A stretch of DNA of 64,000 nt from Octopus vulgaris (lineage: Eukaryota), in contig OX597823.1 of assembly GCA_951406725.2 (NCBI GenBank), forward strand, positions 14,756,001 to 14,820,000. Reading direction: 5' to 3'. Below the pieces are notes generated by a model, which was not told the DNA's origin, did no database searches, and saw only the letters and a program-made list of their open reading frames with translations. Of the stretch, positions 31,426 through 33,049 are shown one piece after another; positions within the stretch are counted from its first letter, which is position 1, and each line of letters begins with the position of its first letter. Both the position numbers and the translations under genes were made by a program.

Positions 31426-31662
<237 letters not shown>

Positions 31663-32045: not shown

Positions 32046-33049
32046 TGTGTGTGTGAACTCTAGAGACTACCAAGAAGACAGCATGATCATTGAAGACTTG
32101 AAACTACGGACAAGATAGCACGATCACTGTAAGACTCGAGACTACCAAGATTTGGCTAAAAAGAGACGATGAGCGATGGCTAGAAGTATATTGAGTTCTT
32201 CATAACCAGCTGATCTAGCAAGCGGGGCCTCATATCAGTGAGCATTGATGCCGTCGAGAGGTAGGCCCCGAAACGGCGCGCATTCTCTCCTGATGACCCC
32301 ATACACTTGCTAGCTTCCGGTATACGGAGCTTTTAACTAGTAGCACTTGCATGTGCAAGTTGTTTGCAAGACATAGTGTGATCATTGTTAGCCTTGTTCT
32401 CTTAAAATTTAAACTTCAAAGTGACAATGTGCAGGTTGAGAGACTGCACATCCATTTCCTTCATAGTTCCAATCTTACACAAACAAAATGGAAAATGAAT
32501 TAAGATGAAGCAAGATGTTCTTAAGGTTTCTCCAAGTTGCATCCTACCTGTAGTCCGTTTGATGAATTAGTTAATATATATATATATAGTTGGTAAAATG
32601 GCAAGCTGGCAGAAACATTAGCACACTGGGCGAAATGCTTAGCAGTATTTACGTTCTGAGTTCAAATTCCGCCAAGGTCAACTTTGCCTTTCATCCTTTC
32701 AGGGTTGATAAATCAAGTACCAGTTGCATACTGGTGTCGATCTAATCAACTAGCACCTAACTCCCCAAAAATTTCTAGGCCTTGTTCCTAGAGTAGAAAA
32801 GAATATATATAATTGGTGTATTCTAAGAGTAAAGTAACTTATTGGTTTCATATTTTGGCACAAGACCAGCAATTTCAAGGAATGGGTTAAGTTAATTACA
32901 TCAACCCCAGGGATCCACTGGTACTTATTTTATTGATACCAGAAGAATGAAAGGTAAAGTCAACCAGGACAAAATTTGAACTCAGAACGTAAAGCCAAAC
33001 AAAATGCCACTAAGCACTTTGCCCAACATGCTAACAATTCTGCCAGCTC

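Follow-up and report, generated by a model that had tools for sequence, protein, structure and literature searches.

On a 64,000-nt stretch of Octopus vulgaris DNA (GCA_951406725.2, contig OX597823.1, positions 14,756,001–14,820,000 of the forward strand; hereafter the window), the strands of a hammerhead ribozyme core stand in an order foreign to the classical types, raising the question of whether the locus belongs to a ribozyme family, what carries it, and what a cut would accomplish. The initial annotation read GCCGTC-GAGAG at 32250–32260, AGGCCCC-GAAA-CGGC at 32263–32277 and CTCTC-CTGATGA at 32285–32296, together with a terminal helix (32215–32222/32306–32313), and proposed a hammerhead of new topology, either pseudoknotted or acting in trans or as a dimer, at the end of a retroelement. 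All of these strings are in place, the terminal helix being the distal part of a longer helix, P0. The parts of the locus are as follows.

31456..31662, minus strand: host exon encoding an EF-hand (context only), the nearest host exon, on the strand opposite to the element
32149..32374, plus strand: 3'-terminal part of an RLE (HERO-like) non-LTR retrotransposon, truncated on its 5' side, from its identity to other copies
32150..32194, plus strand: end of the element ORF (14 codons and the TGA stop); this C-terminus is common to the 400–460-aa open frames of other copies
32215..32227, plus strand: P0, 5' strand (distal 32215–32222, bulged C 32223, proximal GGGG 32224–32227), pairing with 32297–32313 in the fold of the intact copy L016
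32228..32242, plus strand: P5 hairpin, lacking its last G because of a 13-nt deletion (71 own-genome copies compared)
32250..32255, plus strand: stem III, 3' strand, with U16.1 and C17, the cut being predicted 3' of 32255 (U16.1 conservation, insertions starting at the cut)
32256..32260, plus strand: stem I, 5' strand; 4 pairs, 100% paired, with both-side changes in all (MAFFT alignment)
32264..32277, plus strand: block G, i.e. stem II 3' strand, GAAA and stem III 5' strand; GAAAC invariant in the alignment
32278..32284, plus strand: P4, 3' strand, extending stem III; its partner is deleted in the window copy (comparison with intact copies)
32285..32296, plus strand: stem I, 3' strand, and CUGAUGA (MAFFT alignment, covariation)
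32297..32313, plus strand: P0, 3' strand, directly after A9 (own-partner test, fold of intact copies)
32313..32374, plus strand: tail, with a hairpin (32313–32330) and then sequence up to the putative priming point at the 3' end of the element, where 3' ends cluster

A retroelement is indeed the carrier. Searching the octopus genome with the window sequence gave 2205 candidates, and, among the 40 that were scored, the 39 besides the window copy match 32149–32374 at 92–98% identity. The element ends at 32374, 40 nt beyond the T4 run, which rules out that run as its end. The hammerhead-like motif begins about 20 nt past the stop codon (32192–32194), within the 3' UTR of the element. Directly 5' of the element, 32057–32148 is a short, non-microsatellite stretch with internal repeats that matched no fetched locus. 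The neighboring EF-hand gene on the minus strand is presumably CAPSL. The folding energy of the region is unremarkable against shuffles (z −1.39), and Rfam 15 returned no relevant match at the window locus or at 8 intact or related loci.

The window copy is damaged. Between 32242 and 32243 it has lost 13 nt comprising the true 5' strand of stem II and the 5' strand of P4, at a point where most own-genome copies carry 12–14 extra bases, and with its stem II partner deleted it is probably impaired in function. The partner that the initial annotation had assigned to stem II (GGGGCCT, 32224–32230) is thus an accident of this deletion: in intact copies, GGGG 32224–32227 pairs with CCCC 32297–32300 as part of P0, and 32228–32242 form P5. 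Action in trans or as a dimer is likewise unneeded, because all helix partners lie in cis in intact copies. Deletions at this site occur in 11/71 own-genome copies examined, the exact window deletion in 2/71, a sample that is enriched for deletions because the first search used the window sequence. The breakpoints in these 11 copies (the window copy and 10 others) differ and all fall in the G-run between P5 and P4, a possible hot spot of reverse transcriptase (RT) slippage.

Sequence comparison gives the order of the intact fold as P0, P5, II, P4, III-UH-I, II-GAAA-III, P4, I-CUGAnGA, P0, an arrangement that supports the suggested pseudoknotted core. Two helices, P0 and P5, intervene between CUGAnGA and stem II, which are connected only through the closing helix P0, as had been proposed, and P5 lies flush between P0 and stem II in 35/40 alignment rows. 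The bases after CUGAnGA form only 0–2 pairs with the GAAA-side strand in 34/40 rows, pairing with P0 instead. A9 is therefore not joined to stem II by the 0–2 nt of an unbroken block C. The 10.1–11.1 pair is G-C in 36/40 rows and G-U in 4/40. A viroid hammerhead reportedly accommodates a single added base where A9 meets G10.1. The joint between stem III and P4 fits the k-turn consensus in 29/40 rows and is a 6-nt bulge in the subfamily of the window copy.

The blocks are arranged S, G, C, not in the circular order C, G, S that types I, II and III share, and no Rfam hammerhead matches. The claim of a new topology stands only in part, since the same strand swap is already described for type SGC hammerheads (Eckert 2023, PMC10085705). 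Like the octopus motif, type SGC (HRIMA-1 and variants) reads cleavage strand, GAAA strand, CUGAnGA strand from 5' to 3', with a short linker between stems I and II and a pseudoknotted core (PMC10085705). In type SGC, however, the stem II strand follows CUGAnGA directly, whereas in the octopus motif it lies upstream, A9 runs into P0, and P0 and P5 are inserted. As the bases past CUGAnGA pair with P0 and not with stem II, membership in type SGC is ruled out, and the motif would work like a hammerhead without being of that type. In the available part of PMC10085705, CUGAnGA and its stems are assumed to be indivisible; because the known alignments allow insertions of at most 1–2 nt there, the two-helix insertion is without precedent for activity. 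Hammerhead variants with additional helices are mentioned as reported in PMC13725137, yet no such form appears in the accessible portions of that paper or of PMC3088659, PMC10162972, PMC6155905, PMC6765202, PMC7650587, PMC5678591 and PMC10294476. New here are the location in a retrotransposon and the separation of stem II from CUGAnGA. The motif is a real, conserved hammerhead variant, apparently undescribed in the literature.

The longer copies extend upstream into one ORF that encodes a weak C2H2 finger, an RT (RVT_1, E 1e-15), a CCHC knuckle and an RLE, the CCHC and RLE motifs having been identified by eye; it is open over 1112–1175 aa in 4/7 young copies examined. With RT, a CCHC knuckle and, at the C-terminus, a PD-(D/E)xK endonuclease in one ORF, the element qualifies as an RLE non-LTR retrotransposon, and the nearest solved structures are R2 proteins (E 1.6e-16). 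Named homologues come from Takifugu, Branchiostoma, other fish and Clytia. Both these hosts and the protein layout, in which one ORF combines zinc finger, RT, CCHC and RLE, are shared with the HERO clade, and the tentative label HERO-like is taken from clade-typical motifs and the homologues' hosts; a cluster look-up of the homologues gave no HERO names. R2-Hero elements are abundant in cephalopods, according to the available part of PMC10294476. For HERO, no ribozyme or circular intermediate is described in the literature searched, and no HERO or other non-LTR element tied to such a ribozyme or circle was found there, most subscription journals and Repbase Reports being outside that search. 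In two copies (L226, L230), the 1175-aa open frame starts just past a head-to-tail junction and reaches its first Met only after about 60 codons, a hint that initiation may be non-AUG or cap-independent. The 5' UTR of own and distant elements (e.g. L033:3960-4150 (-), L123, L127, L134, L138) carries conserved short GGAAAGAC-type repeats at a spacing of about 20 nt.

Conservation was followed in relatives chosen by protein alignment of the RLE domain, i.e. 79 metagenome loci (from the best 80 of 297) and 4 genome-contig loci; 2 genome-contig loci lacking downstream DNA were left out, giving 81 loci, of which 69 have at least 200 nt downstream. The motif parser fixed only GAAA and CUGAnGA, leaving U16.1 and H17 free. 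It found the strand order in 47/81 loci, and in 43/69 with at least 200 nt downstream, with stems that differ in sequence, versus 0/69 reverse strands, 0/73 upstream windows and 0/345 shuffles, so that the non-circular order seen by the initial annotation is beyond chance. Relaxed parsing recovered 11 further loci, of which 5 have perfect cores and 6 have altered ones (control 0/69). Among viral contigs there were 32 pattern matches, none of them a relative. Across 48 rows (47 relatives and the intact own-genome copy L016), position 16.1 is U in 48/48, and position 17 is C in 18, U in 18, A in 12 and G in 0; the full hammerhead core of CUGAnGA, GAAA and UH is thus present, with core changes in 6/69 loci, and a MAFFT alignment places the core positions in identical columns.

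The MAFFT alignment comprises 40 rows (median identity 45%), made without 6 near-duplicates and 2 rows that contig ends had truncated. In this unfitted alignment, which covers stems I and III and the first pair of stem II only, 98.9% of 360 cells are paired, both-side changes occur in 8/9 pairs, and the covariation score is 0.920, compared with 0.225 when shuffled and 0.08–0.14 when slid. For stem II and P0, which had been placed by a script searching for structure, each strand was matched with its own partner: cognate strands paired in 34/40 cases for stem II versus 285/1560 non-cognate combinations, and in 27/40 versus 187/1560 for P0. In the relatives, stems I, II and III therefore abut the core and covary, the stem II partner being deleted in the window copy.

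The motif is not universal. It is missing within 420 nt in 15/69 relatives, 9 of which belong to groups lacking it altogether, and these loci cluster in a quick, poorly resolved RLE tree. Such related RLE elements with no motif within 420 nt past the ORF end (L077, L087, L090, L132, L108, L110, L141, L097, L109) may use another 3' structure. In one branch (L072, L126, L135), the scaffold is kept and core position 3 has changed from C to U, with A at position 8 in two loci. Two HERO-like elements with the motif (L148, L149) lie inside bacterial MAG contigs and are probably contaminating animal DNA.

How the element ends bears on what a cut would do. Loci with the 5' UTR were collected (30 fetched of 69 candidates), and in 27/30 the element's own 3' end lies immediately upstream, joined without any extra bases, one flank being common to two of the 27; the other 3/30 are truncated inside the 5' UTR. 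The pieces upstream of the head-to-tail junction measure from 6 to about 1,970 nt; 20 of the 27 joined loci run through the predicted cut, and none starts at it, ruling out R2-like processing of the 5' end, in which full-length copies would start there. Complete elements have a unit of 3,733–3,738 nt (24 loci examined, 16 with both ends scored). In the 16 two-ended elements, the two repeats agree at 74/75 diagnostic sites versus 62% when permuted, with 0/20,000 permutations as high, a concordance like that of LTRs. The 3' ends cluster at the equivalent of 32374 and often extend a few bases into the element's 5' start: 12/45 unique 3' flanks continue at least 4 bases into it versus 0.8 expected. 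In 9/33 relatives, 5' UTR-like motifs follow right after the ribozyme, in head-to-tail order (control 0), the motif list having been chosen post hoc; in L083, a 1061-aa ORF follows the ribozyme and these motifs. Collapsed assembly could contribute to this order in relatives. No terminal repeats were found at contig ends of relatives (0/33), and no convincing target-site duplications in 30 loci. Four contig sets presumed to be RNA-derived cover the motif and not the head-to-tail junction, and contigs cannot show ends. Five internally deleted copies (L232, L234, L236, L238, L239) have units of 571–1440 nt and keep both terminal repeats, possibly as non-autonomous mini-circles or through later deletions.

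The predicted cut, 3' of C32255 as the initial annotation had placed it, gains support as a prediction from the 5' junctions. A genome search collected copies showing two mismatches immediately upstream of a given offset, and matches were sorted into true junctions and internal changes. True 5' junctions per matches were 1/6 at −2, 1/1 at −1, 9/11 at the cut itself, 3/6 at +1, 0/6 at +2, 0/1 at +4 and 0/2 at +6, counts that are small and come from search patterns differing in CpG content. Nine short insertions thus begin exactly at the predicted cut (P=1.7e-4 under a uniform spread), where about 1.4 would be expected from the upstream rate over 696 exact 21-mer copies (P=1.4e-5). This upstream truncation rate derives from 28 loci; the search whose query began 2 nt upstream of the cut was used for it alone, because that query is biased against copies starting there. 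About 2% of copies start at the predicted cut. A stall of RT is a less likely cause of these junctions, as the helices there would already have lost their 3' partners when RT arrives. One copy (L214) has lost internal sequence, so that its RLE region is followed directly by position +1 of the predicted cut.

Judged on sequence, catalysis in this element family is very probable, and we consider it likely that self-cleavage is followed by re-ligation to a circle of about 3.74 kb and by internally primed rolling-circle copying. A transcript spanning both terminal repeats would be cut at both ribozymes, releasing a monomer of about 3,736 nt whose two ends P0, II, P4 and III would hold together for sealing by the ribozyme or a host ligase. 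The element protein would then nick DNA and start priming 119 nt beyond the cut, always at this one internal position, perhaps aided by a short stretch of pairing with the RNA bases that follow. RT would usually stop early, leaving ordinary 3' fragments like the window copy, would sometimes run more than one lap, rebuilding two ribozymes, and on unsealed templates would yield 119-nt inserts starting at the cut. Several observations weigh against such a circle: the two-helix insertion after CUGAnGA lacks precedent for activity (PMC10085705), 15/69 relatives are without the motif and three loci of one branch carry the C3-to-U change, and no more than about 2% of copies begin at the cut, on those small counts and unequal CpG patterns. 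Concordant repeats, moreover, are also expected from end-to-end jumping on one RNA. This suggests an alternative in which the ribozyme cuts and the ends are never sealed, the helices holding them together while RT jumps the nick, so that the circle would be functional and not covalent. This alternative makes the same predictions for the head-to-tail ends, for the concordance of the repeats and for run-off inserts that start at the cut, and among R2 proteins, the closest solved relatives, RT is said to copy across discontinuous templates, as Bibillo and Eickbush reportedly described in 2002. RT template jumps often add untemplated bases, however, whereas the cut-crossing copies keep the junction without added bases and about 2% of copies stop at the cut, and we regard copying across an open nick as unlikely.

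A template need not be circular if the transcript is linear and terminally redundant or tandem, the slow ribozyme freeing element RNA from host transcripts, aiding cap-independent translation or limiting expression. Such processing or expression roles have been proposed for the 5' HDV ribozyme of R2 and for Penelope's PLTR hammerheads. That most copies read through an uncut site, that type SGC ribozymes are slow (PMC10085705) and that Penelope elements occur in tandem with hammerheads (PMC6765202) would agree with this arrangement, but 0/27 full-length 5' ends start at the upstream cut. The redundancy varies in length to about 1,970 nt and subfamily variants are common to both repeats, indicating that a repeat-rebuilding step is needed, which a linear template cannot supply; a linear template is thus decidedly improbable. 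The motif could finally be a hammerhead-like scaffold without catalytic activity, which in most lineages includes a k-turn and which serves to bind the element protein and position priming, consistent with the k-turn consensus, the broken link between A9 and G10.1, the core changes in one branch and the loss of the motif in others. Such a scaffold is very hard to reconcile with the retention of all catalytic core positions and of not-G at 17, although the parser left U16.1 and H17 free, and with the pile-up of 5' junctions at the scissile bond, and we give it little credence. Returning to the sealed circle, its wider form would be that a widespread autonomous LINE-type clade replicates via genomic RNA that is covalently closed. 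In this view, which on balance seems just probable, the circle would be formed by a hammerhead that has two helices set into its CUGAnGA-stem II block, and reverse transcription, target-primed at an internal position, would copy it as a rolling circle.

The proposed cycle parallels the model for retrozymes, here transferred to an autonomous element. In plant LTR and metazoan non-LTR retrozymes, hammerheads likewise cleave between repeats, circular RNA is the proposed template and tandem cDNA results; these are short, ORF-less, non-autonomous elements of 170–800 nt with type I or III hammerheads, in contrast to the autonomous octopus unit of about 3.74 kb with its own RT and endonuclease (PMC7229834, in its available part). 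Penelope-like elements are also autonomous; they have a partial-tandem layout, and their terminal repeats contain hammerheads (PMC6765202). They differ from the octopus element in clade and endonuclease and in having minimal type I hammerheads that act as dimers. Their endonuclease is of the GIY-YIG type. R2 and L1Tc have 5' HDV-like ribozymes that process the RNA of a non-LTR element, as is predicted for the octopus element, whose ribozyme is instead of hammerhead type, lies past the stop codon, and has a predicted cut that is not an end of full-length insertions.

If these readings are true, the three-block rule for hammerhead wiring is broken, and many animal genomes would harbor a cut-and-seal ribozyme that standard searches have missed. 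An autonomous relative of R2 would prime inside a circular RNA and not at its 3' end, providing a testable model of the way in which circular RNAs that bear ribozymes come to be copied into genomes and, possibly, a gene-insertion tool with a circular template.
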